DNA from: an uncultured Thermoleophilia bacterium
GTDB lineage: Bacteria > Actinomycetota > Thermoleophilia > UBA2241
Direction: 5' to 3'
DNA: 64,000 bases
Assembly: GCA_963705085.1 (NCBI GenBank)
Contig: CAVPIV010000004.1
Coordinates: 1,043,379 to 1,107,378 of the forward strand
Position 1 is the first letter of the stretch. Each line of letters starts with the position of its first letter. The translations under genes were made by a program, and so were the position numbers. The notes beneath the pieces are model-generated. The model saw only the letters and a list, made by a program, of their open reading frames with translations, was not told where the DNA came from and ran no database searches. Below are positions 2,698-27,010 of this stretch, in pieces.

Positions 2698-3984
2698 CTA
2701 GCAAGCGGCCGCGGCCGCCGCCAGGCCATCCGCGAGCACGCCCGCCACCCGCTCGAGCTGCGCGTCCTCGATGACCAGCGGCGGCTGGACGCGCAGCACG
2801 TTGCCGGCGTTGCCGCCGACGCCGATGAGGACGCCGTGTTCGAGGCAGTACTGGCGCACGAAGGCCGCGGCGGCGCCGGCCGGCGCTTTCGTCGCCCGGT
2901 CGGTCACGAGCTCGACGCCGATCATCAGGCCCCTGCCGCGCACCTCGCCGATCAGCGGCTGCGAGTCCGCGAGGTCCTCGAGGCGGGCCTGGAGGGCGGC
3001 GCCCTTCGCGGCCGAGGCCGCGACCACGCCGCCCTCCAGCACCTCGATGTTGGCCAGTGCGGCGGCGCAGCTCACCGGGTTGCCGCCGAAAGTGCTCAGG
3101 TGATCGCCGGGCTGGAAGGCGTCGGCGATCTCCGGCCGGGTCGTGAAGGCCGAGAGCGGCCAGCCGTCGGCGATGCCCTTGGCCATCACGATGATGTCGG
3201 GCTCGACGCCCTCGTGCTCCACGGCGAACATGCGGCCGGTGCGCCCGAAGCCGCTCTGCACCTCGTCGGCGATGAAGAGCACATCCTCCTCGTCGAGGAT
3301 CTCCTTGACCCGCCGGAAGTAGCCGTCCGGCGGCACGATGATGCCGCCCTCGCCCATGACCGGCTCGGCGATGAAGGCACAGACGTTGCCCGACAGGTGC
3401 AGGCGCATGACGTCGGCGACGCGCCGCGCGCAGAGCAGGCCGCACGTCTCCGGGTCCTTCTCGGCGAAGCAGCGGTAGCAGTACGGGGTCGGGGCGAAGG
3501 CGACGCCCGGCATGTACGGGCCGCCGCCCTTCTTGCGGCCCGAGTTGCCGGTCACCGACAGCGTGGCGTACGAGCGCCCGTGGAAGCTCGACTCGAGCGC
3601 CACGAACTCGTTCCTGCCGGTGAAGCGTCTGGCGAGCCGGAAGGCGCCCTCGATCGCCTCCGCGCCGCCGTTGCCGAAGAACGTCTTCTGCAGCCGCCCA
3701 GGCGTGATCTGGGCGAGCTTCTCGGCCAGGGCCGCAACGCTCGCCACGTGGTAGACGTACGAGCAGGCGTGCACCAGCTTCTCCGCCTGCGCCATGGCAG
3801 CCCCCAGCACCCTGGCGTTGTGATGCCCGGCGTTGGTGACGCTGATCCCGGCGAAGCAGTCGATGTACTCGGCGCCGTCCTCGTCGTAGAGGAGCGCCCC
3901 CTCGCCGTGATCGACGACCACGGGCTCGACCCGCTTCATGAACCCGGTGATCACGTAGTCGCGGTACTGCTGCTTCACGTCCAT
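2698..3984 (-). CDS. Class III aminotransferase (GabT/beta-alanine/4-aminobutyrate aminotransferase-like)
   Basis: GGAEAIEGA, SFHGRS, IAEPVMGEGG, DEVQSGFGRTG, MAKGIADG, STFGGNP. Ends in TAG. Confidence 0.9.
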   Translation of the reverse strand: MDVKQQYRDYVITGFMKRVEPVVVDHGEGALLYDEDGAEYIDCFAGISVTNAGHHNARVLGAAMAQAEKLVHACSYVYHVASVAALAEKLAQITPGRLQKTFFGNGGAEAIEGAFRLARRFTGRNEFVALESSFHGRSYATLSVTGNSGRKKGGGPYMPGVAFAPTPYCYRCFAEKDPETCGLLCARRVADVMRLHLSGNVCAFIAEPVMGEGGIIVPPDGYFRRVKEILDEEDVLFIADEVQSGFGRTGRMFAVEHEGVEPDIIVMAKGIADGWPLSAFTTRPEIADAFQPGDHLSTFGGNPVSCAAALANIEVLEGGVVAASAAKGAALQARLEDLADSQPLIGEVRGRGLMIGVELVTDRATKAPAGAAAAFVRQYCLEHGVLIGVGGNAGNVLRVQPPLVIEDAQLERVAGVLADGLAAAAAAC

Positions 3985-4022
3985 CCTCGACCACCCTCTC
4001 GTGACGGGCCTGTGCCCGTGTC

Positions 4023-5555
4023 TCACATCCGGTTGACGGTGCCCTCCCACGTGCCGACCTTCGTCGCCTGCCGGTCCTCGGGCGTGAACCAGCGCGACGT
4101 CACGCACTTGGTCTCGGTGTAGAAGCGCACGCCGTCGGTGCCCAGCACGTGCGCGTCGCCGAAGAACGACTGCTTGTGCCCGGAGAACGGGAAGAAGGAC
4201 ACGGGCACCGGGATGCCCACGTTGATGCCGACCATGCCGGCGTCCGAACGCCGGGCGAATTCGCGCGCGTGGTAGCCGCTCTCCGTGAAGATGCACGAGC
4301 CGTTGGCGAAGCGGCTGCCGTTCATGATCGCCATACCTTCCTCGAAGTCCGCGACGCGCTTGACGAAGAGGACCGGGCCGAACACCTCGTCGCGGCCGCA
4401 GACCATCTCCTCGGTGACCCGGTCGAAGACCGTGGGGCCGACGAAGAAGCCGTTCTCGTAGCCGGGCACGACGACGTTGCGGCCGTCGAGGACGAGCTCC
4501 GCTCCCTCATCGACGGCCTTGTCGATCCAGCCGGTGACGAAGCGTTTGTGCTGGGCCGTGACCAGCGGGCCGAGCTCCGTTCTGGGGTCGTAGGCGCAGC
4601 CGACGACGCGTTCGCGGGCGAAGCGGACGATGTGCCCCAGGAACTCGTCGGCGACAGCCTCCTCGACGACGCAGACCGGCAAGGCCATGCAGCGCATGCC
4701 GGCGCACCCGAAGGTGGAGTTGATGATGCCGGCGGCCGCCCGCTCGAGCGCGGCGTCGCGCAGCACCAGGCCATGGTTCTTGGCCTCGGTCTGCGCCTGC
4801 ACGCGCTTGCCGTGAGCGGCCGCAACGGAGTAGACGTGCAGCCCCGTCTTCGTCGAGCCGACGAAGCTCACTCCCCGGACGGCAGGATGCGTGACGAGGA
4901 CCTCCGCCTCGGCCGGCTTGCAGGTCACGAGGTTGACGACCCCCTTGGGCAGGCCGGCCTCGATGAGCAGCTCGAGCAGCCGCATGCCGGTTGTCGGGAC
5001 CATGCTGCGCAGCTTGAGCACCAGTGTGTTGCCGGTGGCGACACAGAGCGGCAGCATCCAGCCGAACGGGATCATCGCCGGGAAGTTGAAGGGCGCGATC
5101 CCGACGAAGACGCCGAGCGGCTCGCGGTAGCTGACCGTGTCGTGCCCCGCCGACACGTTCATGAGCGACTCGCCCTTCATGAGCATCGGCGCCCCGACGG
5201 CGAGCTCGCAGGCCTCGATGATCTTGACGACCTCGCCGCGCGCCTCCTCGAGGTTCTTGCCGAGCTCGCGGCTCGTCAGATGGGCGATCTCCTCGACGTG
5301 CTCCTCGAGCAGCGCCTTCCAGCGGAAGAGCACCTGGGTGCGGACCGCCACCGGCTTGGCCGCCCAGGCGTCGAACGCCCTGTGGGCGGCCTCGATCGCG
5401 GCGGCCACCTCCTCAGCGGTGCACGCCGGGGTCTCGGCGAACACCTCGCCGGTGCTCGAGTCGCTCACCGGCAGGTACGTCTCGGTCGCCGACTCCCGCC
5501 ACTCGCCGTCCACGCAGTACTTGAGCCTCTTTACCTGGGACGTGTGGTCTGCCAT
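4023..5555 (-). CDS. mmsA: CoA-acylating (methyl)malonate-semialdehyde dehydrogenase
   Basis: PFNFPAMIP, SFVGST, GKRVQAQTEAKNH, FGCAGMRCMAL, GINVGIPVP, FSGHKQSFFGD are MmsA/IolA signatures. Confidence 0.9.
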   Translation of the reverse strand: MADHTSQVKRLKYCVDGEWRESATETYLPVSDSSTGEVFAETPACTAEEVAAAIEAAHRAFDAWAAKPVAVRTQVLFRWKALLEEHVEEIAHLTSRELGKNLEEARGEVVKIIEACELAVGAPMLMKGESLMNVSAGHDTVSYREPLGVFVGIAPFNFPAMIPFGWMLPLCVATGNTLVLKLRSMVPTTGMRLLELLIEAGLPKGVVNLVTCKPAEAEVLVTHPAVRGVSFVGSTKTGLHVYSVAAAHGKRVQAQTEAKNHGLVLRDAALERAAAGIINSTFGCAGMRCMALPVCVVEEAVADEFLGHIVRFARERVVGCAYDPRTELGPLVTAQHKRFVTGWIDKAVDEGAELVLDGRNVVVPGYENGFFVGPTVFDRVTEEMVCGRDEVFGPVLFVKRVADFEEGMAIMNGSRFANGSCIFTESGYHAREFARRSDAGMVGINVGIPVPVSFFPFSGHKQSFFGDAHVLGTDGVRFYTETKCVTSRWFTPEDRQATKVGTWEGTVNRM

Positions 5556-5570
5556 CTCGCGTCCTTCCTC

Positions 5571-6959
5571 CTAGAGCGAAGCCCGCTCCCTGAACCGGTC
5601 GACGCAGTTGATCGGGACGTCGAGCACCCGCGCGATATTGAACTTCGCCTCGATGAAGTTGGCCTGGGCGGGCTGACTGATCGCGTACGAGTGAATGCGG
5701 CCAAAGCCGTGCTCGTTGCGCACGTCCGTCATCACGGCCGGGTCGGAGAGGTCGAACGGCGACACGCCCAGCTTGCCGGCCACGTACTCCTTGGCCTCCT
5801 TGAGACGCATACCCCGGGTCATCTGCATCCGTGCCACCAGATCTCCGGCAGCACGCATACCGCCCATGCCCGCGGCCTGCGTGTGGGTGCCCTGCATGCC
5901 GAGAGGGTCACCCGACCCCACCTACAACCCGTCGATCTTGAGGATGTCGACGAAGGCCTTGGCGGCCCGGCACGCCGCATCGACGACCGGGTGCACGAAC
6001 ATCGGCACGCCGCCGACGCCCATGCCCACGTTGGGGTGGATCGGGATCGTCGCGTCGGCCATGCAGGGTTTGATCAAGGTCAGCGCCCTGGCCATGTTCC
6101 AGGCGCAGCTCTTGCCGGTGTTGATGTTGACAACCGGCCCGAACATGGTGGCCCCCGCCTTCTGGGCGAGGAGCATCTGCTGGTGCGGCCACTGCCCGGC
6201 CAGCCGCACCCCGTCGTACTCGAGCCGCCCGTGCATGCCGAGCACGAACTCGCCGGCCATGCCCAGCTCGACGCCCATCGTCGGGTACTTCTTGCGCACG
6301 ATCTCGGTCGCCCGCAGGGCGGCGAGGAACTCGGGATCGCCCGAGGCCCCGGTTGTGTCCCAGTCGAGGCCGTCGGCGCCCGCCTCCCACATCGCGTCGG
6401 CGAGCTTCACCATGTCGTCGACAGCCATGTCGACGGCCTCCTCCTCGGCCTCCCGGGCCTCCGGGATCTGCCCCGCCGGCAGCAGCTCGTTCCAGTTCGG
6501 GAACGGGCCGTCGGGCTTGGAGTACAGGCCCAGGTTGACCATGACGCCGTACTGCATGGGGACGACCATCTGCAGCTGGGCGTCGTGCAGGCACTGGGCC
6601 TCGTACGGCAGGATCGTGCGGACGACCTTGAGCGAGTAGTCGCCGACGCAGAGCTCCACCAGGTCGGCGCCCATCCACTGCTCGAACGACTGCATGTCCT
6701 GCTGGCGCGTCGCGTGGGTCTTCATGCCTGTGCCGTCGCAGCTCAGCACGACCTCGTCGCCCAGGTCGACGCTGGTGAAGCGCGCGGGCGAGGCGTAGAT
6801 GTCGAGGACGTGCTCCATCTCGTCGGCGTCGAGCGGCGGCACCTTGGCGCGGGCGGCCGCCGCCTCGACGCCTGCTTCGATGTCCGCCTGCAGCTCGCCG
6901 CGCGTCAGGCGCGCGATCGTGCCGTCGCCCATGCGCGTTGGTATCCGGTTCTCGTTCAC
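5571..6959 (-). CDS. mtbB: Dimethylamine:corrinoid methyltransferase, pyrrolysine-containing (in-frame TAG at 5924-5922)
   Basis: ORFs 5922..6959 and 5571..5921 share a frame and are separated by one TAG: ...ILKIDGL-TAG-VGSGDPLGM...MRAAGDLVARMQ...EAKEYVA. This matches the MtbB Pyl context (DGI-O-IGVGDPLGM). N-terminal TRMGDG; IPIHPNVGMGVGGVPM. Confidence 0.93.
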
Positions 6960-7003
6960 CGCTGATCCCTCCCCCGGCAGCCGTTGCCGCCGCGCGAGTC
7001 CAA

Positions 7004-7023
7004 CTAACCGGTCAATCGATCAC
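7004..7023. promoter_or_regulatory. Putative operator (TRAyC-N8-GrTYA) in the mtbB/mttB divergent intergenic region
   Basis: CTAACCGGTCAATCGATCAC resembles the sites at 18119 and 23997. Confidence 0.5.
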
Positions 7024-7191
7024 TTGGTATGCTACACGCCACAGGGGGTCAAGGGCGAGAGGCGCGCTGGCGCGGCGATGGTCGGTCGCCGGCCCGCGGG
7101 CACGGTTCTCGTCCCTGCCGCCCTCGCTTGACGGTGGCGAACGCCGGTGCAATCGTGCGAGCCGTCGCCCGGCGCGGAAGGGGGGAGAACG

Positions 7192-8642
7192 ATGAGAGCG
7201 ACGACGACCTGGCTGAGCGACGCCGAGAAGCGGAGCATCGTCGACGGCGCCCTCGACCTCCTCGCCAACGTCGGCATGCGCTTCGCCGGCTCTCGCACGC
7301 TGCCGCTGCTGGCGGAGCGGGGGGCGCGCATCGACGAGGCGACCGGCATCGTGCGCCTGCCGCGCGACCTCGTCGCCTGGGCCGTCGAGCGCTGCCCGCG
7401 CTCGTTCCTCATGGCCGGCGCCTCGCCGGCGGACGATGTCATGCTCGGCGAGGGGCGGCCGTTCCACTTCCGCCCAGCGGCTGTGTCGCCAAGACCCTCG
7501 ACTACCGCACGGGCACCCGAAGGCCCAGCACGCTGGCCGACGTGCGCGAGGGCACGGCGGTCATGGACGCGCTGCCGCAGCTCGACCTCATGTGGACGCA
7601 GGTGAGCGCAACCGACGTGCCCCTGGAGCGGCGCGAGCTGCTCGAGTACTTCACCGTGCTCACCGAGACGTCGCGGCACGTCACCTTCGTCGACTGCCCG
7701 CAGGAGGTCGACGCCGTCCTGCGCCTCTGCGAGGTCCTGGAGGGCGACCTCGACCGCTTCCGCGAACGGCCGCGCATCTCCACGGTCGTCACGGCGGCGT
7801 CGCCGCTCCAGGTCGACGGGCCCGTCCTCGACACGCACGTCGCCCTCGCGGCACACGGCGTGCCGATCGAGGTCTACTCGATGACGATCGCCGGCGCGAC
7901 GTCGCCGGTGACGCTCGCCGGCACCGTCGCCCAGGGTCTGGCGGAGTTCCTCGGCGTCGCCACCGCGCTCCAGGTCGCGGCGCCCGGCGCGAGGGTGGTC
8001 TTCTGCTTCGGCTCCGGCGTCCTCGACATGCTGCGCACGACCTTCTCGCTCGGCTGCGTGGAGAGCGCCCTCATGGCCGTCATGGCCACCGAGGTCGGCC
8101 ACCACGTGGGCGTGCCGACGCTCAACCCCGGGCTGTCCACCGACGCCAAGCACGCCGGCCTGCAGACCGGCTACGAGAAGGCCCTCAAGGCGGCGACGGT
8201 GTGCGCCGCCAGCCCCGACATCGTGTCCGGCTGGGGTCTCATCGACTCGCACAACACGATGTACCTGCCGCAGTCGGTGGTCGACAACGAGATCGCCGCC
8301 ATGGTGCGCCGCCTCACCTCCGCCGTCGAGGTGTCGCCCGAGACGCTGGCCGCCGACTCAGTCGCCCGTGTCGGGCCGGGCGGCAGCTTTCTCGGCGAGA
8401 AGGCGACGGCGCGCCGCATCCGCGCCGGCGAGCACTACCTGCCGACGGTCTCGACCAGGCTCTCCTACGAGAAGTGGATCGAGGACGGCCAGACCGAGAT
8501 CGACGCGGCGACGGCCACGGTGGAGCGCATCCTCGCGGCCCGCCCCTCCCGGCAACCCCATCTCCGCGACGAGCAGATCGACGAACTGGCCGCGATCTGC
8601 CGCGCCGGCCCCGAGAGCGTGCGCCAGGCGAAGGGAACGTGA
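7192..8642 (+). CDS. Non-pyrrolysine MttB-superfamily methyltransferase, with a 1-nt deletion frameshift near 7470
   Basis: N-terminal half MRATTTWLS...GRPFHF joins PSGCVAKTLDY...SPLQVD...AGATSPVTLAG...GLSTDAKHAGLQTGYEK...VGPGGSFLG after one missing base (ttccgccc). Confidence 0.85.
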
Positions 8643-8643
8643 C

Positions 8644-9558
8644 ATGAGAATCGGCTACATCGGTCTCGGCTGCCTCGGCCGCCCCCTGGCCCACAGCCTG
8701 CTCGAGGCGGGCTTCCCGCTCACCGTCTACGATGTCGACCGGACCTGCGCCACCGATCTGGTGGCGGCCGGCGCCGTCTGCGCCGACTCGGCCGCCGAGA
8801 CGGCCCGGCTGTCGGACACCGTCATCACCTGCCTCCCCTCCCCCGAGATCGTCGCCGAGGCGGTGGCCGGCGAGGACGGCATCCTCGCCGGCCTGGCGCC
8901 CGGAGGGACGTGGATCGACATGAGCACCAACGACCTACACGAGCTGCGGCGGCTCGCCGCGGCGGCGGCGGAGCAAGGCGTCGCGACGCTCGAGGCGCCG
9001 GTCACCGGCGGCGTTCACCGCGCCGCCGCCGGCATGATCACCGTCCTCGTCGGCGGCGACGAAGAGGTCTTCCGGGCGCACCTCCCCGCCTTCGAAGCGA
9101 TGGGCGGCCGCGTCTTCTACATCGGCGAGCTGGGCCAGGCCTCGGTGATCAAGGTGATCACCAACATGCTGGCCTTCATCCACCTCGTCGCCGACGGCGA
9201 GGCGCTGATGCTGGCCAAGCGCGGCGGCGTCGACCTCAAGCTCGCCTGGGACGTGATCAAGGCCAGCTCGGGCAACAGCTTCGTCCACGAGACCGAGGGC
9301 CAGCTCGTCCTCAACGGCAGCTACAACATCAACTTCACGATGGATCTGGCCCGCAAGGATCTCCATTTCGCCCACCAGCTCGGCCGCGAGTTCGGCGTGC
9401 CGCTGGAGCTCGGCGGGCTCACCGAGCAGATCTTCGCCCGAGCCCGGGCGATGTACGGCGGCGGCGCCCAGTCGCCGATGGTCGTCAAGATGCTCGAGGA
9501 CTGCTGCGGCACCGACCTGCGGGCCCCCGGCTTCCCTGCCGAGCTGGCGCCCGAGTGA
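8644..9558 (+). CDS. NAD(P)-dependent beta-hydroxyacid dehydrogenase family oxidoreductase
   Basis: IGYIGLGCLG Rossmann motif, IDMSTN, EAPVTGG, K-VITN catalytic lysine, FTMDLARKDL. Confidence 0.9.
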   Translation: MRIGYIGLGCLGRPLAHSLLEAGFPLTVYDVDRTCATDLVAAGAVCADSAAETARLSDTVITCLPSPEIVAEAVAGEDGILAGLAPGGTWIDMSTNDLHELRRLAAAAAEQGVATLEAPVTGGVHRAAAGMITVLVGGDEEVFRAHLPAFEAMGGRVFYIGELGQASVIKVITNMLAFIHLVADGEALMLAKRGGVDLKLAWDVIKASSGNSFVHETEGQLVLNGSYNINFTMDLARKDLHFAHQLGREFGVPLELGGLTEQIFARARAMYGGGAQSPMVVKMLEDCCGTDLRAPGFPAELAPE

Positions 9559-9595
9559 TGGACTGCCGGTCGTCCGTCGTGGGAGACTGAGAGCC

Positions 9596-10063
9596 GTGCC
9601 GCACGTCCTGATCTCGAGGAAGACCTGCTCCGGCTGCCACCTCTGCGAGCTGGCCTGCTCCGCCTGGCACGAAGGCGTCTACCGCCCGACGCTGGCCCGC
9701 CTGCGCGTCGAGGTCAACCCGACGACGACGGCGATCAAGGGCTTCACCTGCCTGCAGACGGCCTGCCACAAGTGCCAGGACGCCTGCCCGCACGCCGCGA
9801 TCGTCACCGAGTCCGGGGTGCTCCTCGTCGTCGAGGAGCTCTGCAACGCCTGCGCCGACATCGCCGAGGGTCCGCGCTGCGTGACCGCCTGCCCGTACGA
9901 CGTGATCGCCATCCACCCGGACTCGGGCAAGGCCTTCAAGTGCGACATGTGCCGCGGCGGCGAGCCCCAGTGCGTGGCCTTCTGCCAGAACCCCGTCGTG
10001 CTGGCGGTGACGGTGCGGGCGGACAAGGGCGACCCGGCGGACTCGACCCCCGCGCCGGAGTGA
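9596..10063 (+). CDS. 4Fe-4S dicluster ferredoxin-like protein (AOR-associated)
   Basis: CSGCHLCELAC, CLQTACHKCQDACP, CNAC...CVTACP, KCDMC...CVAFC. Confidence 0.9.
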   Translation: MPHVLISRKTCSGCHLCELACSAWHEGVYRPTLARLRVEVNPTTTAIKGFTCLQTACHKCQDACPHAAIVTESGVLLVVEELCNACADIAEGPRCVTACPYDVIAIHPDSGKAFKCDMCRGGEPQCVAFCQNPVVLAVTVRADKGDPADSTPAPE

Positions 10064-10068
10064 CGGCG

Positions 10069-10335
10069 ATGGCCGAGGTCAAGCTGACGCTCCCGCTCGG
10101 CTGGGACCACCCGCGCGCCCTGCGCGAGCTGGAGTGCGACGCGGCCACCGTGGGCGAGGCGATCGACCGCTTCATCGCCCAGGAGCCGCTGCTGGAGCCG
10201 CGCATCAAGCGCGACGGCCGCGTCTGGGTGGGCATCTTCGTCAACGGCCGGAACGTGCACTACCTTGACGGACTCGACACCCGGCTGGCGGACGGCGACA
10301 CGCTGACGCTCCTCACGCCCGTGGCCGGCGGATAG
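10069..10335 (+). CDS. MoaD/ThiS family sulfur carrier protein
   Basis: IFVNGRN...DTRLADGDTLTLLTPVAGG; C-terminal Gly-Gly followed by TAG. Confidence 0.9.
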   Translation: MAEVKLTLPLGWDHPRALRELECDAATVGEAIDRFIAQEPLLEPRIKRDGRVWVGIFVNGRNVHYLDGLDTRLADGDTLTLLTPVAGG

Positions 10336-10344
10336 GACGGCGCG

Positions 10345-15317: not shown

Positions 15318-15318
15318 G

Positions 15319-18210: not shown

Positions 18211-19362
18211 TCAGACGCCGGGCGGGGGGATCAGGACGAGCTTGCCGGCGGGCCGCCCCTCGAGCAGGGCCGTCTGGGCGACGGCGATCCTCTCCAACGG
18301 GAAGGTCCCGGCGACCGGCAGTCGCAGATCGCCGGCCTCGACGGCGGCGACCACGGCGGCGAAAGTGCCCTGCTCCCACGCCGTGCAGCCGATCAGGGTC
18401 AGATCCTTGAGGTAGAAGGTGCGCTTGTCGAAGGCGACCAGCGGCCCGGCAATCGCACCCGACGAGACGTAGCGGCCGCCGCGCCGGAGGACGCCCAGCA
18501 TGGCCCCGAACTGAGGACCCGAGACGTTGTCGACCACGACATCCACGCTCTGCTGGCCGAGCAAACCGGCGGGGTCGTCGTCGCCGACGACACGATCGGC
18601 GCCCAGCGCCAGCACCTGGTCCGCGCGATCGCGTCGTGCGAGGGCGGTCACAAGGGCGCCGCGCCGCTTCGCGAGTTGCACCACGGCCGAGCCGACGCCG
18701 CCCGAGGCGCCGACGACGAGGACGTGCTCGCCCTCGGCTACGGCAGCCCGGCACAGCATGTTCTCTGCCGTCCCCGAGGCGCAGGGAATCGCGCCGAGCT
18801 CGACATCGCTCAGGGCGCAGTCGACGGCGAAGACCTCGGAGGCCGGCACGCGCGCGTACTGGGCGAAGGCGCCGTCGAAGTCCGAGCCCAGCCAGACCGT
18901 CTCCATCGACGCGAAGCCGAGGGGCCGCATGCACGGCCGCGCCAGGACGCGGCGACCGATGAGGCGGGCGTCGCCGCCGGCGCCCACCTCGACCACGCGG
19001 CCGCAGCAGTCCGTCCCCTGGATGAACGGGAACGGCGTCGCCCCGCGCCACCCGCCGTCGCCCGAGACGTCAGGCGAGCCGGCTGCTTCCTGCGTGGCGC
19101 TCGCCGCGCCGGCGGTGACGCCGGCGGCGTACCACCCGAGGCGCGTGTTGACGTCGGTGGGGTTCACGCCGGCGGCGAGGACCTGCAGCAGCACCTCGCC
19201 CGCCCCCGGGCTGGGACGCGGCACCTCACGATACTCGAGCCTGTCGAGGCCGCCGGCGCCCGTCGTCACGACGGCCGCCATCGTCGGCGTGCCGCGCTTC
19301 ACGGCGAAGCGGTCCGCCCGGAGGTCGATCTGCCTCCTGATCACCTCGTCTGCGAAGGCCAT
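18211..19362 (-). CDS. MDR-superfamily alcohol dehydrogenase/quinone oxidoreductase-like protein
   Basis: AAGVNPTD, IQGTDCCG, VGASGGVGSA, SGAIAGP, GKLVL. Confidence 0.88.
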   Translation of the reverse strand: MAFADEVIRRQIDLRADRFAVKRGTPTMAAVVTTGAGGLDRLEYREVPRPSPGAGEVLLQVLAAGVNPTDVNTRLGWYAAGVTAGAASATQEAAGSPDVSGDGGWRGATPFPFIQGTDCCGRVVEVGAGGDARLIGRRVLARPCMRPLGFASMETVWLGSDFDGAFAQYARVPASEVFAVDCALSDVELGAIPCASGTAENMLCRAAVAEGEHVLVVGASGGVGSAVVQLAKRRGALVTALARRDRADQVLALGADRVVGDDDPAGLLGQQSVDVVVDNVSGPQFGAMLGVLRRGGRYVSSGAIAGPLVAFDKRTFYLKDLTLIGCTAWEQGTFAAVVAAVEAGDLRLPVAGTFPLERIAVAQTALLEGRPAGKLVLIPPPGV

Positions 19363-19392
19363 GTACGCTCCCCGAGCCGGTTGGACCGTCGC

Positions 19393-20796
19393 CTACGCGA
19401 GGCAGTAGGCGTCGAGCTGCCGGCGGGTGACCGCGTCGAGGTCGTCGGGCGGCTCGTAGGTCTCCAGCAGTTCCTCGACCCGACGGCTCGCGACGGCGGC
19501 GAGGTCGTGAGCCCCGAGACCCAACCACATCCGGTACGGGGCACGGTTCATGATCGTCGGGCGGCGGCCGTCCCGGGCGTGACGACGGGTGTGGCGCTGC
19601 CCGAGCACCGAGCCGCCCGGACCCACGACGGCCATAGTGTCGAGGGCCAGCGTCTCGTCGTCCACGACGACCGGCCGCCTCCCGACGCGCAGCGCGCTCA
19701 GCATCTCGTCGTCGATCACGAACTTCGCCGGCGAGAAGCAGTTGAAGGACGAGAGGATGCCGGCGGCCTGCAGCACGAAGTCCGCGTCGTGGTCGAGGGC
19801 CGCCTCGATCGACAAGGCCGACTCGATCCCCGCCTGCGCGTCGGGGACGTGGGCGTCGGTCAGCGACCCTCCGGCACGCACCGGGACGCCGACGAAGTGG
19901 CCGAGCTGTACCGTCGCCTCGGTGAGGGTCCAGTATTCGGGCGTCCCCATGCTCAGAGCGCCGCTCTTCATGCACGCCAGCGACGACGTCCCCCCGTAGA
20001 GGAACGGGCAGCCCGGGCGAGCGAGCTGGCTGAGGACGAGGCCGCTGAGCAGCTCCGCGTGCTGCACGGCCAGCAGGCCGGCGAGCGAGAGCGGCGCGGT
20101 CGTGCCCCCCATGGCGCAGACCGACACGCAGACGGGCTGGCCGAGGCGGGCCAGGCGCAGCAGCGTCTGGGCCGCCTCGGCCGAGAACTGCAGCGGCGAG
20201 GTCGAGTTGATGTTGGTCCACAGCCGCGGCCGCTCGTGCCACCCCGCGCCGTGGACGATCTCGGTCACGTCGAGGACGACCTGGAGGTCGTTCAGGCCGG
20301 CGACGCTGTACCTGACGGCCTTGTCGCTGCCGACGATCTGGGCGTGCGCGGCCGCCCGCGGCCGCTGCTCCTCGGGCAGATCGGTCGGCTCCACGCTGTG
20401 GCCGTGCACGGCGATGTTGGCGGAGAGATGCGCGAGCGCGATGGCCGTCCGCAGATCGGCGAGCGTGCTGTGGCGCTGCGCGCCGCCGTCGAGGACGAAC
20501 GCCGGCCCCGCGGCGCTGCCCAGCACCGGGGGGCCGTCGCCTCCCACGCGCAGATCGAGCTCGGGTCGCCGGCCCGCCACGACGTACTCGGCCGGCGCCG
20601 ACTCCAGCGCGCGGACCACGAGGGCCTCGCCGAAACGGGCGCGCGCGCCGTCCACGGCGGCCCCGTGCGCCGCGAGCAGCGCCAGCGCCTCGGGATCGAG
20701 GACCTCGAACCCGACGTGCTCCAGCAGCCAGAGACCGGCGTCGTGAACGCGCTGCACATCAGGCGCCGACAGCGCCTGACGCCCGTGCCCGCTCAC
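19393..20796 (-). CDS. Non-pyrrolysine MttB-superfamily methyltransferase (MtgB-like)
   Basis: NSTSPLQF, MGGTTAPLSLAG, RAGGSLTDAHVPDAQAG (Leu at the Pyl-equivalent site), VGPGGS. Ends in TAG. Confidence 0.9.
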   Translation of the reverse strand: MSGHGRQALSAPDVQRVHDAGLWLLEHVGFEVLDPEALALLAAHGAAVDGARARFGEALVVRALESAPAEYVVAGRRPELDLRVGGDGPPVLGSAAGPAFVLDGGAQRHSTLADLRTAIALAHLSANIAVHGHSVEPTDLPEEQRPRAAAHAQIVGSDKAVRYSVAGLNDLQVVLDVTEIVHGAGWHERPRLWTNINSTSPLQFSAEAAQTLLRLARLGQPVCVSVCAMGGTTAPLSLAGLLAVQHAELLSGLVLSQLARPGCPFLYGGTSSLACMKSGALSMGTPEYWTLTEATVQLGHFVGVPVRAGGSLTDAHVPDAQAGIESALSIEAALDHDADFVLQAAGILSSFNCFSPAKFVIDDEMLSALRVGRRPVVVDDETLALDTMAVVGPGGSVLGQRHTRRHARDGRRPTIMNRAPYRMWLGLGAHDLAAVASRRVEELLETYEPPDDLDAVTRRQLDAYCLA

Positions 20797-20823
20797 GCCG
20801 CCCCTGCCCCTGGGCCGCCCGCC

Positions 20824-21474
20824 TCAGCCCACCCCGAGGATGGTCTTGGCGGTGGCCACCGCCTCGATCGCGTCCTCGGCGTAGCCGTCGGCGCCGATCT
20901 CCTCGGCCCAGGCGCGGGTCGTCGGGGCGCCGCCGATCATGACCTTGACGGACTCGCGCAGGCCGGCGGCCTTCAAGGCCTCGATCGTCCGGGCCTGGTT
21001 GGGCATCGTCGTGGTCAGCAGGGCGGAGAGCAGCAGCAGATCGGCGCCGGTGTCGCGCACCGTCGCGACGAAGGTCTCGACGGGCACGTCGCAGCCGACG
21101 TCGGTGACCGTGAAGCCGGCGGCGCTGAGCATGCTGCAGACGATCGTCTTGCCGATCTCGTGGATGTCGCCGGCCACCGTGCCGGCCACGGCCACGCCCA
21201 GGGTGCGGCGGCCCTCGCTGGTCTTGTCGAGCTCGGGCTGCAGGACGGCCACGGCGGCCTTCATGGCCTCGGCCCCCTGGACCAGCTCGGGGAGGAAGAA
21301 CTCGCCGCGGCCGAAGAGGTCGCCGACCTCCTCGATGCCCTTGACGAAGCCGTTGTCGAGGATGTCGGCGGGGGCCAGGCCGGCGGCCAGGCCCTGGGCG
21401 GCCAGGGCGGCGGCCTCCTCCGGCTCGCCGTCGAGGATCGTCTGCTTCATCTGCTCGTACAGGTCTGCTGACAT
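20824..21474 (-). CDS. Methyltransferase corrinoid (B12-binding) protein, MttC/MtbC-like
   Basis: GDIHEIGK (DxHxxG), LSALLTTT, MIGGAP, IGADGYAEDA, N-terminal cap FFLPEL. Confidence 0.95.
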   Translation of the reverse strand: MSADLYEQMKQTILDGEPEEAAALAAQGLAAGLAPADILDNGFVKGIEEVGDLFGRGEFFLPELVQGAEAMKAAVAVLQPELDKTSEGRRTLGVAVAGTVAGDIHEIGKTIVCSMLSAAGFTVTDVGCDVPVETFVATVRDTGADLLLLSALLTTTMPNQARTIEALKAAGLRESVKVMIGGAPTTRAWAEEIGADGYAEDAIEAVATAKTILGVG

Positions 21475-21485
21475 GTGATCCTCCG

Positions 21486-22937
21486 TCACTTCCCGGCTTC
21501 GACGTAGGCGTCGACCAGGTCGTCCATCTTGGCCTTGAGCTCCGGCGCGAGCGGCTCCGGCCGATGGTCGGCCAGGATCGCGAGCGCCTTGCGCCGCGCC
21601 TTCTCGCGGAGATCGAGCGAGCCCTCCTCCTCCCAGGCCTGCTGGGTGACGCGGTTGAGGATCGTGGGCTTCCACTGGAGCTGCCGCAGGTGCCGCTTGG
21701 TGTGCTTGGCGCGCAGGAAGTCGCCGCCGGGACCCACGGCGGCGATGGTGTCGAGTCCGAGCGTCTCCTCGCTGACCTCGATGCCCTCGAGCGTGCGGCG
21801 GTTCATGGAGACGTACTCGTCGACGATGACGACGAGTTCGGGCGAGCAGCTCAAACCGAAGTCGACGTAGCCGACGTCGTGGTTGAGGTTCGAGCCCGCC
21901 TGCATCGAGAGGAGCGTGAGCTCGGCGATATCGAGTCCGGCCTGGGCGTCGCAGGTCTGCGAGTCGCTGGTCCCGGCGTACCCCCAGTTGGGGATGTCCA
22001 TCCACTTGGCCATCTCCACCATGCCGAGGTACGTGGTGTAGTACTCGGCCGAGTTGTAGAGGGCCTGCACGGTGTTCATGTCGAGCTTGACCGGGCCCAT
22101 GCCGGTGAGCACCGGCGAGCCGGGCCGGCGGAGCTGGTGGATGACGACACCGAAGAGCGATTCGGCGAGGGCCTGCACGATGTGGCCGGCGTGCGTGATC
22201 GGCGCCGTGGCGCCGGCGATCGGCGCCGGGGAGTAGATGAGCGGGATGCCCCAGTCGGCGCAGAAGAGCAGCTTGTCGATGACCTCGACGGAGTGTCTGA
22301 GCGGGCTCACGGGCTCGCCATACTGGATGAAGTACGGCTTGGCCCGCAGCTCCTCGGCGCCGCCGCGGATCTCGCAGGCGATCTTCCACATGACCTCGAG
22401 GTCCTCGGGGCCGGCGGCCGTCATCACCATCGGCTTGGTGGTGTTGCTGACCATCTGGCGGAAGCTCTCGAGGTATGACGCGTACGCGTCGCAGTCGCTC
22501 GGGTAGGCGCTCGACATGACGAAGTCCATGTTGGGCAGGCCGTCGCAGAGGCGCGCCTGGCGGCCGACGTCGGTGAGCCTGCTCGTGCGACGCTCGCCGG
22601 TCTCGAGATCGTAGATGCTCAGCAGGTCGGAGCCGGTGCCGAAGTACGAGTTGTGGCCGCCCAGCCGCATGGCGAGCTCGCCGGTGCGGCCGTACACGTC
22701 GATCATGGCCGGCACCGTCTCGCGCGCCTTGGCGACGAGCTCGCGCGGGATGCGCACCAGGTCCTCGCCCTCCAGCGTCGCGCCCGCCTGCAGGAGCAGG
22801 TCGCGGGCGACCGCGTGCGGGACCACCATCCCGGTGTCCGCGATGATGGTCAGCGCCGCGTCGTAGATCGCCTGACGCTTCTCGTCGGAGAGAAAGGTCA
22901 GACGGCTGTTGAGCGCGGAGGTGGGCAGGTCGTTCAT
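21486..22937 (-). CDS. Non-pyrrolysine MttB-superfamily methyltransferase
   Basis: FGTGSD, EPVSPL, AGATAPITHAG, GYAGTSDSQTCDAQAG, NLNHDVG, VGPGGDFL. Confidence 0.92.
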   Translation of the reverse strand: MNDLPTSALNSRLTFLSDEKRQAIYDAALTIIADTGMVVPHAVARDLLLQAGATLEGEDLVRIPRELVAKARETVPAMIDVYGRTGELAMRLGGHNSYFGTGSDLLSIYDLETGERRTSRLTDVGRQARLCDGLPNMDFVMSSAYPSDCDAYASYLESFRQMVSNTTKPMVMTAAGPEDLEVMWKIACEIRGGAEELRAKPYFIQYGEPVSPLRHSVEVIDKLLFCADWGIPLIYSPAPIAGATAPITHAGHIVQALAESLFGVVIHQLRRPGSPVLTGMGPVKLDMNTVQALYNSAEYYTTYLGMVEMAKWMDIPNWGYAGTSDSQTCDAQAGLDIAELTLLSMQAGSNLNHDVGYVDFGLSCSPELVVIVDEYVSMNRRTLEGIEVSEETLGLDTIAAVGPGGDFLRAKHTKRHLRQLQWKPTILNRVTQQAWEEEGSLDLREKARRKALAILADHRPEPLAPELKAKMDDLVDAYVEAGK

Positions 22938-23165
22938 CGTCTCTTCTCTCCTCTGCAGTCCCGTGGAGGCCTATGGGCACGGCCGACGTCGAGCCCAGTG
23001 CAGGATGACATGCGGGTACCGTCACGACAACCGGCCGGCGGCGACATCTGGTAGCATCCCGGCCTGAGGTATCCGCTCGGTTAAGCGTCGACCGCGCCGC
23101 GCCATGGGCCCGGGACCAGGCGCCGGGTGGACGGTGGTGGGCCGCGCCAGGGGGAGGTCGCAAGC

Positions 23166-23933
23166 GTGAGCAGCAAGAAGCCGCGTGATGCCGCCGGAGC
23201 GGGCTTGGGCGGGAGTCGGGAGGCAGACGCGGACGAGCCCGACGCGGCCGCCCCGATCCGGGCCTCCGCCGGCGCGGAGAGCCCCAACCGGACAATCCAC
23301 CTGGAGTTCCGCAACCCGCTCTCCGACCTCCCCGAGACCGCACGCAACCTGATCCTCTCGGCCAAGGCGATCATCGCGGAGCACGGCTTCGACGCCCTCA
23401 CGCTGAACCGTCTGGCGGCAGTGTCAGGCGAGAACAAGGCGATGACCGCCTACTACTTCGGCAACAAGGCGGGCCTCGTCGCGGCCGTGCTCGATTCGGT
23501 CATTCACGACGAGTACCTCGCCTCCGAATCCCGCATGGAGAACCTCGGCGCCGGCGAGCTCACCCCGCGACTGATCGAGGAGATGCGGGGGATCGTGAGC
23601 TCGGCCGAGGACTTCCGCGTCTTCTACGAGCTCCTCCCGCGAGTGCTTCGCGACGACGTGCTGCGGACGCGCATGGTGCCGCTCTACCGCTGGTACTGGA
23701 GCGTCAAGCTGGAGTGGCTCGGGTTCGGGGACGACCCCGAGGCGCTGGACGACCCGGATCTGCAGGGCATCGCCAGGCTCCTCTCCGCCATGATCGACGG
23801 ACTCGCCGTCCAGGCGATGATCGAGCCGCGGGCGGACCTCTCCGGGGCCTACCGGATCCTGCAGCAGCTCGTGGCGGAGTCGCTGCCGCGGTTCGTCGCG
23901 GAGCGATCGGCCGGTTGCGACGCGGCCGAGTAG
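23166..23933 (+). CDS. TetR/AcrR family transcriptional regulator (BetI-like C-terminus)
   Basis: ILSAKAIIAEHGFDALTLNRLAAVSG...YYFGNKAGL helix-turn-helix; AMIDGLAVQ. RBS GGGGAGG before GTG. Ends in TAG. Confidence 0.9.
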   Translation: MSSKKPRDAAGAGLGGSREADADEPDAAAPIRASAGAESPNRTIHLEFRNPLSDLPETARNLILSAKAIIAEHGFDALTLNRLAAVSGENKAMTAYYFGNKAGLVAAVLDSVIHDEYLASESRMENLGAGELTPRLIEEMRGIVSSAEDFRVFYELLPRVLRDDVLRTRMVPLYRWYWSVKLEWLGFGDDPEALDDPDLQGIARLLSAMIDGLAVQAMIEPRADLSGAYRILQQLVAESLPRFVAERSAGCDAAE

Positions 23934-23969
23934 CTGCCGAGACACCCGAGAACAGCCTCTCCCCGACCC

Positions 23970-24016
23970 TTGACACGTTCGCACCGCCGTGGGACGCTGA
24001 CCAAACGGTTGGTCAG
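23970..24016 (+). promoter_or_regulatory. Sigma70-type promoter of Pyl-mttB with overlapping palindromic operator
   Basis: TTGACA (23970-75)-N17-GACGCT (23993-98, preceded by TGG); palindrome CTGACCAA-ACGG-TTGGTCAG at 23997-24016. Confidence 0.7.
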
Positions 24017-24071
24017 TCGATCGACGCCCTCCCCGCCCTTGCCGGCGCCTCGCTCAGGAGGTTCGAATGTC

Positions 24072-25541
24072 ATGAGACGCAATCCTCGCGCCGGAGCGCG
24101 CCAGAGCGGCGGCCTGAGACTCGAGGTGTTCACCGAAGACGAGCTGCGCGAGATCCACCTCGCCACGCTCGAGGTGCTGTCGCGTACCGGCGTCTTCGTC
24201 GAGGACGACGAGGCACTCGCCATCTTCGCCGGCGGCGGCGCCGACATCGACACCGACCGCCGGGTCGTCAGGCTCCCCGCCCACGTCGTCGAAGAGGCCC
24301 TGCGCACGGCGCCGCCCAAGGTCGTCCTCTGCGGCCGCACGCCCGAACGCGATGTCGTCCTCGAGGACGGCCGCGTCGGGTTCACGAACTTCGGCGAGGG
24401 CATCCAGGTCGTCGACCCCTACACCGGGGAGTTGCACGAGTCGCTCAAGCAGGATGTCGCCGACTGTGCCCGCCTCATCGACGCCCTCCCCGAGATCGAC
24501 GTCCTCGAGCGCCCTCTCGGCGCCCACGACGTCCCGCCCGACACCGCGGCCCTGCACAATGCCGAGGCCATCTTCTCGAACACGACGAAGCACGCCACCA
24601 TCGGTCCGCTCACCGGGTTCTGCGCCCGCAAGATGATCGACATGGCGGCGGCGATCGCCGGCGGCCGCGATCAGCTCCGCCGGCGGCCGCTCCTCTCGTT
24701 CCTCACCTGCCCGGTGAGCCCTCTCAAGCTGGTGGCCGACTGCTGCCGGATCATCATCGAGGGCGTGCGCGCCGGCGTGCCGGTCAACGTGCTGTCCATG
24801 GCGATGGCCGGCGGCTCCGCGCCCGTCAACCTCGCCGGCGCGCTGGTCGAGCACAACGCCGAGGTGCTGGCCGGGATCACGCTGGCCCAGCTCACGGCGC
24901 CCGGTGCCCCGGTCATCTACGGCTCCTCGACGACCGCCATGGACCTGCGTTTCGCCAGCGCCTCGGTGGGCAGCCCTGAGTGCGGGCTGATCGGCGCCGG
25001 CGTCGCCTGCCTCGCCCGCTTCTACCTGCTGCCGAGCTGGGTGGCCGGTGCGTAGGGGGACGCCAAAGTGGCGGACGCCCAATCCGGCCACGAGAAGACG
25101 ATCACCAGCCTGCTGCCGGCGTTGGCAGGGGCCAACCTGATCTACGGGCTGGGGATGCTGGAGTCGGGCGTCACCATCGATTACGGGCAGCTCGTCATGG
25201 ATGCCGAGTTCGCGCGCATGGTCAAGTTCTGCGTCCCGGGCATCCCCGTCAACGACGAGACCCTGGCCGTCGACGTGATCGCGGAGGTCGGACCCTTTGG
25301 CGACTTCCTCTCGCACGACGACACGTACCGGGGCATGCGCAGCCAGTCGCAGTCACGGCTCATCGACCGGAGGGTCCGGGAGGACTGGACCGCCTCCGGC
25401 TCGACGAGCATCTACGACCGCGCCCTGGCCGAGGCGCGACGTCTGCTCGAGACGTATCAGCCGGAGCCTCTTCCCGACGACGTGGTCCGGCGCCTGCGAG
25501 AGATCGTCGCCGCCGCGGAGCGCGAGCTCGGGGTCGGCTGA
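24072..25541 (+). CDS. mttB: Trimethylamine:corrinoid methyltransferase, pyrrolysine-containing (in-frame TAG at 25053-25055)
   Basis: LPSWVAGA-TAG-GDAKVADAQSGHEKT matches the MttB Pyl context (PSFVAGT-O-SDAK..DQAGHEKT). FTNFGEG, CPVSPL, MAMAGGSAPV, YGSSTT, GANLIYGLGMLE. RBS CAGGAGG. Confidence 0.95.
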
Positions 25542-25582
25542 GCGCCTCGTCGCCGAGGTCGAAGGCCGCCGGACAGCCCCGC

Positions 25583-27010
25583 TCACCTCGGCAGCAGCAG
25601 CGCCTTGATCTCGAGGTAGTCCTCGAGCCCGTACCGTCCGCCTTCACGCCCGTTGCCGGAGTGCTTCATGCCGCCGAAGGGCGTGCCGTAGCGGGACGGG
25701 GCGTAGTTGACGTGCACGCTCCCCGCGCGCAGCCGCCTCGCCACCCGTTCGGCACGCTCCGCGTCGCTCGTGCTCACGTAGGCGGCGAGGCCGTACGGCG
25801 TGTCGTTGGCCAGCACCACTGCCTCGTCCTCGCTGTCGAACGGCATCATCACGAGCACTGGACCGAAGATCTCCTCGCGCGCCACCCGCATGCCGGGCTC
25901 GACGTCGGCGAAGATGGTCGGACGCACGTAGTACCCCTTGTCGAATCCCTCCGGCCGGCCGGGGCCGCCGATCAGGAGGCGAGCCCCTTCGGCGATGCCT
26001 GCCGCGATCAGCCCCTGAACCCGGTCGAACTGGATCTGGCTGATCAGCGGCCCGATGTGCGGGCCCTCAACGATCGGGTCGCCGACGGCTTGCCCACGCC
26101 CGGCTGACGCGGCTACGACGAGCGCGCGGCCGTAGGCGCTGCGCTCGACCAGCATGCGTGTCGGGGCGTCGCAACTCTGCCCGGTGTTGGCGAAGCACGC
26201 CAGCACGCCGTCGGTCACGGCCCGGTCCAGGTCCGAGTCGGCGAAGACGATGTTGGGGGACTTGCCGCCGAGCTCCAGCGTCACCCGCTTGATCGTCTCG
26301 GCCGCGTCGTGCGTGACGGCGATGCCCGCGCGGGTCGAACCGGTGAAGGACATCATGGCGACATCCGGATGTCGGGAGAGCGCCGCGCCGACCGTCGGTC
26401 CATCCCCGTTGACGAGATTGAAGACGCCCGGCGGGAAGCCGGCCTCGTCGATCATCTCGGCGTAGAGCATGGCGTCCAGGGGGGTGAACTCAGAGGGCTT
26501 GAGGACGCAGGTACAGCCAGTGGCCAGGGCCGGGATCACTTTGAGCACGACCTGGTTGATCGGCCAGTTCCAGGGCGTGATCAGCCCACAGATGCCGGCG
26601 GGCTCGCGCACCACCGTGTCGCCGTTCGGCAGGAGCTCGCGCCAGTTCACCTGCTTCATCGCCTTGATGAAGGCGCGCACGTGCCGGATGCCCGCCTCGG
26701 CCTGCTGGTCGCGACACATGGTGATCGGCGCGCCGAGCTCGAGCGTGATGGCCTCGACAACCTCGTCGTAGCGGCGTTCGTAGATCGCCAGCAGGCGCTC
26801 CAGCAAGGCCACACGCTCGTCGGGCCCGGTGAAGGCGTACGTCGCGAAGGCCCGCTTCGCGGCCGCGACCGCCCGATCGACGTCCGCGGGCGTGCCCATC
26901 GACACGATCGCGACCGCTTCCTCGGTTGCAGGGTTGATGATGTAGCGGTCGCAGACCGTCAGAGGATCGACCCACCGCCCGTCGATGTAGAACCTGCGCT
27001 TGTCGAGCAT
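25583..27010 (-). CDS. NAD-dependent aldehyde dehydrogenase
   Basis: ITPWNWP, KPSE, SFTGS, LELGGKSP, GQSCDAP, EEIFGPV. Confidence 0.95.
   Translation of the reverse strand: MLDKRRFYIDGRWVDPLTVCDRYIINPATEEAVAIVSMGTPADVDRAVAAAKRAFATYAFTGPDERVALLERLLAIYERRYDEVVEAITLELGAPITMCRDQQAEAGIRHVRAFIKAMKQVNWRELLPNGDTVVREPAGICGLITPWNWPINQVVLKVIPALATGCTCVLKPSEFTPLDAMLYAEMIDEAGFPPGVFNLVNGDGPTVGAALSRHPDVAMMSFTGSTRAGIAVTHDAAETIKRVTLELGGKSPNIVFADSDLDRAVTDGVLACFANTGQSCDAPTRMLVERSAYGRALVVAASAGRGQAVGDPIVEGPHIGPLISQIQFDRVQGLIAAGIAEGARLLIGGPGRPEGFDKGYYVRPTIFADVEPGMRVAREEIFGPVLVMMPFDSEDEAVVLANDTPYGLAAYVSTSDAERAERVARRLRAGSVHVNYAPSRYGTPFGGMKHSGNGREGGRYGLEDYLEIKALLLPR

Follow-up and report, generated by a model that had tools for sequence, protein, structure and literature searches.

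A modular island of pyrrolysine and non-pyrrolysine corrinoid methyltransferase genes in an uncultured Thermoleophilia bacterium

In the present study, a 64,000-nucleotide stretch of DNA (the window) from an uncultured Thermoleophilia bacterium (assembly GCA_963705085.1, contig CAVPIV010000004.1, herein C4, positions 1043379-1107378) was analysed, with emphasis on a 24-kb gene island at window positions 2698-27010. This island carries five corrinoid methyltransferase genes, two of which contain an in-frame TAG at the pyrrolysine (Pyl) position and three of which encode an ordinary residue there, together with a corrinoid protein, an ABC importer and several oxidoreductases. The genome comprises eight contigs and 2.89 Mb, with an estimated completeness of 97.7% and an estimated contamination of 2.24%, and contig C4, which carries the window, is 1.37 Mb long. 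Real genes were chosen by third-position G+C content (GC3) and then scanned against Pfam and NCBIfam; for profile scoring, the Pyl-MttB gene (24072-25541) was translated with TAG as lysine. Every gene named for this region in an original prediction, which was made from the DNA letters and their open reading frames, was recovered in these scans at the coordinates listed in Table 1.

Table 1. Predicted genes of the island, with window coordinates and the profile evidence for each assignment (scores in bits)
Predicted product	Position	Strand	Profile evidence and remarks
Class-III (omega/GABA-type) aminotransferase	2698-3984	-	PF00202 E 2.3e-111; TAG stop
CoA-acylating methylmalonate/malonate-semialdehyde dehydrogenase MmsA	4023-5555	-	TIGR01722 541.6 (cut-off 448.5); PF00171
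Pyl-dependent dimethylamine:corrinoid methyltransferase MtbB	5571-6959	-	PF09505 E 6e-168; TIGR02368 436 (cut-off 369.1)
Non-Pyl MttB paralog 1 (MttB1)	7192-8642	+	PF06253 E 6e-56, in two pieces in different frames; Ser at Pyl column
Beta-hydroxyacid dehydrogenase (HIBADH; tartronate-semialdehyde reductase-like)	8644-9558	+	TIGR01505 196.7 and TIGR01692 184.3, both below cut-off
4Fe-4S dicluster ferredoxin-like protein	9596-10063	+	Fer4 families
MoaD/SAMP-like small protein with Gly-Gly end	10069-10335	+	NF041918 46.8 and TIGR01687 38.8, both below cut-off
Aldehyde:ferredoxin oxidoreductase family (AOR)	10345-12123	+	PF02730 E 1.2e-71; PF01314 E 1.3e-103
Fused double ABC ATPase (Dpp/Opp type)	12133-14427	-	Two ABC_tran and two oligo_HPY stretches
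Two ABC permeases	15319-16266, 14334-15317	-	PF00528, OppC_N, BPD_transp_1_N
Family-5 solute-binding protein (SBP_bac_5), Tat/lipoprotein-like N-terminus	16312-18126	-	PF00496 E 6.8e-83
MDR-superfamily oxidoreductase (quinone oxidoreductase/enoyl-reductase-like)	18211-19362	-	ADH_N, ADH_zinc_N
Non-Pyl MttB paralog 2 (MttB2)	19393-20796	-	PF06253 E 2e-108; Leu at Pyl column
Corrinoid protein, methyltransferase-cognate	20824-21474	-	TIGR02370 221.7 (cut-off 215.3)
Non-Pyl MttB paralog 3 (MttB3)	21486-22937	-	PF06253 E 1.5e-80; Thr at Pyl column
TetR-family regulator	23127-23933	+	TetR_N; TetR_C_6 31.3 (cut-off 27); TAG stop
Pyl-dependent trimethylamine:corrinoid methyltransferase MttB (Pyl-MttB)	24072-25541	+	TIGR02369 731.4 (cut-off 525)
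Aldehyde dehydrogenase (ALDH)	25583-27010	-	PF00171 E 3.4e-153

First, the methyltransferases of the island fall into two classes. The in-frame TAG lies at 5924-5922 in MtbB and at 25053-25055 in Pyl-MttB, and coding-type GC3 (0.87-0.91) persists 3' of both codons. The three non-Pyl paralogs MttB1, MttB2 and MttB3 score 251, 266 and 345 bits against TIGR02369, under the trimethylamine equivalog cut-off of that model, and share 27-30% identity among themselves and with the Pyl enzyme. In addition, the genome holds about 25 MttB-family genes (29 matches, some of which are fragments). The corrinoid protein of the island is the sole B12-binding match within the window. The original prediction had all five methyltransferases share this carrier; the presence of a single corrinoid protein in the window was upheld, but one shared carrier is not forced, because tblastn with this protein revealed nine further corrinoid-protein places in the genome. 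Moreover, a 676-bp copy of the gene (window 20798-21473), 99.85% identical, was observed on another contig (C7:31614-32289), where it is surrounded by phosphate-transporter, GCS2 ligase and DUF1638 housekeeping genes, with no methyltransferase gene adjoining. This copy could represent a recent duplication, gene conversion or an assembly repeat.

The MttB1 gene is split by a deletion of one nucleotide at 7470/7471. The extra base is present in all four relatives compared, and the relatives of MttB1 have a single intact frame of 501-529 codons; the frameshift is compatible with either a true pseudogene or an assembly error. Other MtbB/MttB genes in two frames were observed at C4:778920-780298, C4:1192946-1194197, C4:1214119-1215577 and C4:413374-414779. 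The broken genes of this family reflect either a high rate of single-base errors in the assembly or a large number of recent pseudogenes.

Second, a complete pyl set was found in the genome. A pylT gene was detected by ARAGORN at C7:12163-12235; the tRNA has the anticodon CUA, and its D stem and anticodon stem measure 3 and 6 bp, respectively. The same contig carries pylSc (307.5 bits, cut-off 178.15), pylSn (116.7, cut-off 51.15) and pylC (261.6, cut-off 248.3, a full open frame), and pylB (414.8, cut-off 348.2) and pylD (216.6, cut-off 150.05) are located at 842-844 kb of C4, the contig of the window. All five protein genes thus exceed their curated cut-offs and, because pylT, pylSn, pylSc, pylB, pylC and pylD are all present, Pyl decoding is plausible in this organism on genomic grounds. 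The position of the TAG codons is also conserved. A TAG occupies the Pyl column (residue 346) in all three MtbB paralogs of the genome, and exactly one in-frame TAG was observed in each of 150 MtbB matches from the genus, among the matches listed (208 more exist). Likewise, all 51 related MttB matches with at least 50% identity that span the Pyl column, which is residue 328 of MttB, have a stop there; matches of less than 50% identity have Ser, His, Thr or another residue.

The TAG codon is not avoided as a stop in this genome, however, and ends 371 of 1439 crude high-GC3 frames. These frames close at normal protein ends, and a genome-wide reassignment of UAG was rejected on this basis. Since TAG is an ordinary stop, Pyl insertion must compete with termination, a competition also known for other Pyl bacteria. 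A more radical view is that UAG is purely a stop, so that the TAG-interrupted genes are relics and MtbB and MttB are truncated and inactive. The frequent use of TAG as a stop, the scattering of the pyl genes over two contigs with no single cassette, and the further broken genes of the same family are consistent with this view. Nevertheless, all six pyl components are present, the stop falls exactly at the Pyl column in all orthologs and paralogs examined, coding-type composition continues beyond it, and PylS is kept in 73 of the 79 genomes examined from the window's family. Relic genes are therefore a very improbable explanation.

The layout of the pyl genes, with pylB and pylD on C4 and pylC, pylT, pylSn and pylSc on C7, departs from the usual arrangement in one cassette. 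A gene for a retron-type reverse transcriptase (C7:10055-10909, minus strand; NF038233 134.5 bits, cut-off 235) directly adjoins pylC and is separated from pylT by 1.3 kb. In addition, ARAGORN reported a selenocysteine tRNA (anticodon TCA) and an odd tRNA with the four-base anticodon cgtg (C3:195896-195993 and C5:80529-80612), and the organism may use the 21st amino acid as well as the 22nd.

The lineage of the host was evaluated by an MtbB scan of species-representative genomes, which yielded 191 relatives. The best 80 of these 191 loci were kept, and nearly all are titled Thermoleophilia, Actinomycetota or Actinomycetes, with one Alphaproteobacteria title, in agreement with the high-GC actinobacterial host that had been predicted. 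PylSc was sought in 401 genomes sampled evenly across the class and was detected in 83, comprising the 73 genomes of the window's family already mentioned, 9 of 61 genomes of a second family, and none elsewhere. Within the window's genus, 44 of 48 genomes have PylSc, and MtbB matches at E<=1e-100 number from 0 to 12 per genome across 50 genomes, with a median of 8 and with three in the window's genome; these counts may take in fragments from fragmented metagenome-assembled genomes (MAGs). Two genomes of the genus, G002 and G014 (1.7-1.8 Mb in one or two contigs, 98% complete), have neither a PylS nor an MtbB match, and the Pyl trait may have been lost there alongside genome reduction.

These results also bear on the possibility that the island arose as an artefact of assembly or binning, through a chimeric contig or foreign Pyl genes. 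The genome is MAG-like, with eight contigs and some estimated contamination, and the G+C content of C7 (0.658) is slightly lower than that of C4 (0.694). However, pylB and pylD are on the same 1.37-Mb contig as the window, the G+C content of the window is even (about 70% throughout, range 0.65-0.73), colinearity with the window extends over 17 kb in one relative (G092), the same genes recur in dozens of independent Thermoleophilia MAGs, and another genome (G331) has pylS beside an MtbB paralog on a single contig. The island is real, and an artefact can be given next to no credence.

Third, the island appears to be a mosaic of modules and not one pathway, because synteny across relatives separates the company of MttB2 and the company of MtbB from MmsA and the aminotransferase. 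A set of 47 orthologous MtbB loci with at least 75% identity was compared, several of which have too little flanking DNA to judge. MttB1 and HIBADH lie divergently upstream of MtbB in 27 of the 47 and Pyl-MttB directly downstream in 23, and MmsA follows MtbB in just two. Among 20 MttB2 loci of the genus, TetR was found within 6 kb in 19, AOR in 16, MDR in 15, an ortholog of MttB3 in 15 and a corrinoid protein in seven. In five genomes viewed over 30-36 kb, the MttB2-type modules lie 10-15 kb from the MtbB module. Two recurrent modules of the genus thus emerge: module A comprises MttB3, the corrinoid protein and MttB2, with TetR, AOR and MDR, and module B comprises MttB1 and HIBADH, divergent from MtbB and, in most relatives, from Pyl-MttB. 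Both the importer of the family-5 ABC type and the pair of MmsA and aminotransferase are additions seen in the sublineage of the window.

The whole region could instead be read as one pathway, in which methylated compounds are imported by the ABC system, demethylated by the five methyltransferases and the remaining skeleton oxidized by the aminotransferase, MmsA, HIBADH, AOR, MDR and ALDH, for example from beta-alanine betaine to beta-alanine and through malonate semialdehyde to acetyl-CoA. The genes are all adjacent, and those from MttB3 through the ABC ATPase (22937 to 12133) lie on the minus strand with short gaps. Moreover, an aminotransferase and a CoA-acylating MmsA are the usual pair in the breakdown of beta-alanine or 3-aminoisobutyrate, the layout of MtbB and MmsA is kept in two relatives (G092 and G104), and family-5 binding-protein (SBP5) genes recur near methyltransferase genes. 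However, these two relatives are the only ones of 50 other genus genomes with MmsA beside MtbB; elsewhere in the genus, where both are on the same contig, they are 138-200 kb apart. At 13 MmsA loci from other genomes of the genus, no methyltransferase or corrinoid gene was found within about 6 kb, and an aminotransferase adjoins MmsA at one. In addition, MtbB and Pyl-MttB pass the equivalog cut-offs of enzymes for free dimethylamine and trimethylamine, as opposed to any carbon skeleton, and ALDH belongs to a serC-serA-ALDH run on the minus strand, beyond a convergent junction with the island. A single pathway is therefore unlikely. The aminotransferase and MmsA as a conserved skeleton branch of a beta-alanine-betaine route were ruled out by the same counts.

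Thus, the scheme of the original prediction, in which the cluster imports, demethylates and oxidizes, was sustained for the mixed set of Pyl and non-Pyl methyltransferases and gained support for import, but not for oxidation through the aminotransferase and MmsA; as to co-conservation, the two modules recur in relatives, whereas MmsA with the aminotransferase is confined to a small sublineage. In the modular arrangement preferred here, the methyltransferases, TetR, AOR, MDR and HIBADH make up the conserved neighbourhood, which MmsA and the aminotransferase, and to some degree the ABC system, have joined recently. In two relatives (L037:4912-7137 and L028:4328-6541), MttB1 and HIBADH are followed by an SDR gene, an FGGY-family kinase gene, an FAD-binding oxidase gene and an ETF-like gene, and the SDR gene ends at both loci with a TAG that is in frame with the kinase gene. 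This gene neighbourhood may point to a substrate of MttB1 that resembles a polyol or a sugar.

The partners required for methyl transfer are dispersed over the genome, and the complete set of methyltransferase (MT1), corrinoid protein, second methyltransferase (MT2) and activase is not encoded within the island. An acetyl-CoA synthase gene (CdhC/AcsB, C4:848169), a RACo-type activase gene (C4:852878) and a pterin-binding methyltransferase gene (C4:854572) lie together on the window's contig; a second RACo/RamA-type gene is located beside MttB genes at C3:129714, and a URO-D-type gene beside a corrinoid-protein gene at C4:1238247. The genes pylB and pylD are 4-11 kb from the acetyl-CoA synthase, activase and pterin methyltransferase genes (C4:842169-855123). 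Two MtmB homologs were found, at C8:600510-601859 (L091:3499-4878) and C4:408581-409927, each directly after a corrinoid-protein gene. Neither of these two genes contains an in-frame stop, so that the genome has no Pyl MtmB. The C8 homolog, which was the one aligned, matches the solved MtmB (1l2q) over its full length (E 3e-60), with Val at the Pyl position, and the two genes look like non-Pyl members of the MtmB family. Because no Pyl MtmB is present, the steps from trimethylamine through dimethylamine to monomethylamine are encoded and the canonical demethylation of monomethylamine is not; the stepwise removal of methyl groups to the end, as originally predicted, thus halts at monomethylamine.

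Herein, we propose a route for the methyl groups. Pyl-MttB and MtbB would pass a methyl group from trimethylamine and dimethylamine to a Co(I) corrinoid protein, and the non-Pyl MttB paralogs would do likewise for quaternary or other N-methyl compounds. A second methyltransferase would transfer the methyl group from the methyl-corrinoid to tetrahydrofolate, and a RamA-type activase would keep the corrinoid active, the genes for both enzymes lying outside the window. The methyl group would then enter one-carbon and acetyl-CoA metabolism, for which the Wood-Ljungdahl carbonyl branch is present in the genome.

The role of the ABC system in import was evaluated through its binding protein. The genome has 13 SBP5 paralogs by tblastn, seven of which have an MttB, MtbB, MtmB or corrinoid-protein gene no more than 3 kb away, compared with a random mean of 0.97 and with none of 20,000 random placements reaching seven; these genes are clustered in islands, and the seven cases are not independent events. 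This proximity supports the predicted import of methylated compounds, as putative cargo, by the family-5 ABC system.

With regard to the substrates of the non-Pyl enzymes, the best match of MttB2 in the PDB is the glycine betaine methyltransferase MtgB (9yce/2qne; 268 bits over residues 9-460, a distant match), ahead of MttB (7xcl, 169 bits), and MttB2 and MtgB both have Leu at the Pyl column; no MtgB model from NCBIfam was returned for MttB2. MttB1 and MttB3 show equal similarity to MtgB and to MttB. These matches raise the possibility that module A converts choline, or another amino-alcohol or amino-aldehyde, anaerobically to glycine betaine, with a BetI-like TetR sensing choline, the dehydrogenases and AOR producing betaine, and MttB2 with MttB3 demethylating it. 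Besides the similarity of MttB2 to MtgB, TetR exceeds the cut-off of the BetI-type C-terminal family of Pfam and has BetI models as its top NCBIfam matches, AOR and MDR are kept beside MttB2 in most of the genus loci described above, and ALDH matches the BADH models with 430 bits. However, the BetI models match the helix-turn-helix region of TetR alone (32.7 bits, cut-off 201), MDR resembles quinone or enoyl reductases, and ALDH falls under every cut-off, including those of the HpaE and aminobutyraldehyde dehydrogenase models that it also matches. Because the BetI match is limited to the DNA-binding region and MDR is reductase-like, we assign a low probability to this choline or aldehyde route.

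Taken together, we consider it likely that the region is one of several corrinoid methyltransferase islands in a Thermoleophilia genome that decodes certain UAG codons as Pyl, and that it is modular, with the methyl flow proposed above. Several points weigh against this interpretation. The pylT, pylS and pylC genes are on C7 and the window is on C4, in a MAG-like assembly of eight contigs, and TAG remains a common stop. No MT2 (PF01208 URO-D or PF00809 pterin-binding) or RamA/RACo (PF14574) match was found in the window, all matches in the genome being outside C4:1043379-1107378. The genome encodes no Pyl MtmB for monomethylamine. One MttB of the island is frameshifted, MDR resembles an enoyl or quinone reductase more than an alcohol dehydrogenase, and the ligands usually annotated for family-5 binding proteins are peptides, nickel or opines; the best models for the binding protein of the island are indeed nickel, peptide and opine binders, all far under their cut-offs. 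Finally, the low mutual identity of the non-Pyl paralogs is accompanied by a distance from any characterised enzyme, and their substrates are therefore guesses.

Each part of this system can be assigned to a known family, and methyl transfer follows the established three-component corrinoid mechanism. The Methanosarcina systems (MttB/MttC, MtbB/MtbC, MtmB/MtmC, MtbA and RamA) employ the same MT1 families, whose genes likewise carry a UAG in frame at the position of Pyl. The MttB and MtbB of the island pass the corresponding equivalog cut-offs, the corrinoid protein passes TIGR02370, and full-length alignments were obtained with the solved MttB (7xcl) and MtmB (1l2q). The present system differs from that of Methanosarcina in having a bacterial host, a PylS divided into PylSn and PylSc and, presumably, tetrahydrofolate with the Wood-Ljungdahl pathway in place of coenzyme M as methyl acceptor; it also has no Pyl MtmB, its MT2 and RamA lie outside the cluster, and TAG is not depleted as a stop. 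Methanosarcina reportedly has few TAG stops and three copies of mtbB. The non-Pyl paralogs resemble MtgB of Desulfitobacterium hafniense and MtcB, MtpB and MtyB of Eubacterium limosum in belonging to PF06253, in having an ordinary residue at the Pyl column and in adjoining a corrinoid-protein gene; none of the three shows enough similarity for a substrate assignment. The number of MttB-family genes in the present genome is like that of E. limosum, which is said to have many. The neighbours of the Firmicute genes are reportedly BCCT-type transporters and MtqA, whereas AOR, MDR, TetR and a family-5 ABC importer are found here. As in other Pyl bacteria (Firmicutes including Desulfitobacterium and Acetohalobium; Deltaproteobacteria including Bilophila and the Olavius symbiont), pylSn and pylSc are split, TAG is a normal stop, and Pyl is confined, as far as examined, to methylamine methyltransferases. 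Unlike in those bacteria, the pyl genes are dispersed, with pylB and pylD near the acs cluster on C4 and pylC, pylT, pylSn and pylSc near a retron-type reverse transcriptase gene on C7, and the trait spans nearly the whole of a Thermoleophilia family.

The original prediction also stated that such a system was best known from methanogens, Firmicutes and Deltaproteobacteria and not from an actinobacteria-like genome; the view that it is unknown in actinobacteria is out of date in the light of two reports. Guo et al. (2022) listed 81 bacterial PylRS genomes in four phyla, including two Actinobacteria (PMC9630628), and Ellenbogen et al. (2023) reported that Actinobacteriota MAGs from Stordalen Mire express Pyl-encoding mttB and mtbB (PMC10805028). 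One of the best 80 of 191 MtbB relatives (L059) comes from a MAG titled 'palsa'. The accessible text of the latter report gives no cluster anatomy, pyl inventory, transporter link or class-level distribution. In the literature searches made, nothing was found on the family-wide distribution of PylS, on dispersed pyl genes beside an acs cluster, on the expansion of MtbB in the genus, on the MttB3-MttB2-TetR-AOR-MDR module or on a link between family-5 binding proteins and methyltransferase genes, although supplements may hold more. Since the known mechanism is unchanged and the basic observation is already in print, the value of the present results lies in breadth and not in principle.

This breadth has several implications. 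Among the "non-competitive" substrates on which methylotrophic methanogens of sediments and wetlands grow, methylamines and betaines are the principal ones, and a widespread actinobacterial family that removes their methyl groups would divert carbon from methane. The known range of the 22nd amino acid would extend from a few Firmicutes and Deltaproteobacteria to a large high-GC lineage with a broad makeup, including two Pyl enzyme families, about 25 MttB-family genes and acetyl-CoA synthase. Practical leads include numerous unassigned paralogs of non-Pyl MttB and Pyl-MtbB in which substrates could be discovered, an association of family-5 ABC importers with methylated amines that can be tested, and a PylRS/tRNAPyl pair from a GC-rich bacterium. 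A bolder hypothesis is that Pyl is a core trait of an entire uncultured Thermoleophilia family of sediments and wetlands, in which the Pyl enzymes have expanded, MtbB paralogs (45-66% identity) have acquired amine specificities beyond dimethylamine, family-5 binding proteins have been recruited for methylated amines, and methylotrophy through the Wood-Ljungdahl pathway competes with methylotrophic methanogens. We regard this hypothesis as possible but, taken as a whole, rather doubtful.

Several further features of the island were observed. The aminotransferase reaches no NCBIfam cut-off, and its best matches are aspartate and GABA aminotransferase families. The best NCBIfam models for MDR are PIG3 quinone oxidoreductase and acryloyl-CoA reductase, both with scores far under the cut-offs. 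The substrate of ALDH and its link to the island are uncertain. A scan of 2500-22400 for promoters and terminators gave one promoter-like and five terminator-like sites, no more than in shuffled sequences, and provided no operon boundaries. A search of sequencing runs with 18211-27010 returned no RNA dataset among the matches listed, and all shares were 0.19 or less.

Each of the TAG stops of MtbB (5571-5573), MttB2 (19393-19395) and TetR (23931-23933) is followed in the same frame by the next gene, no further stop intervening; that of MtbB (5573-5571 on its own strand) lies inside the ribosome-binding site of mmsA. Programmed read-through fusions of MtbB with MmsA, MttB2 with MDR and TetR with Pyl-MttB were considered and rejected, the layout not being conserved and probably due to chance. 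In relatives, the stop of MtbB is TGA at two loci (L037 and L055) and TAG at a third (L011), and the downstream genes differ. The next in-frame stop follows after a median of 57 codons in TAG-ended frames compared with 48 in TGA-ended frames, a slight difference. Finally, the start of the window (29-1243) contains a second class-III aminotransferase gene that runs off the window edge, and a wax-ester synthase/DGAT gene (1182-2690) lies just outside the island.

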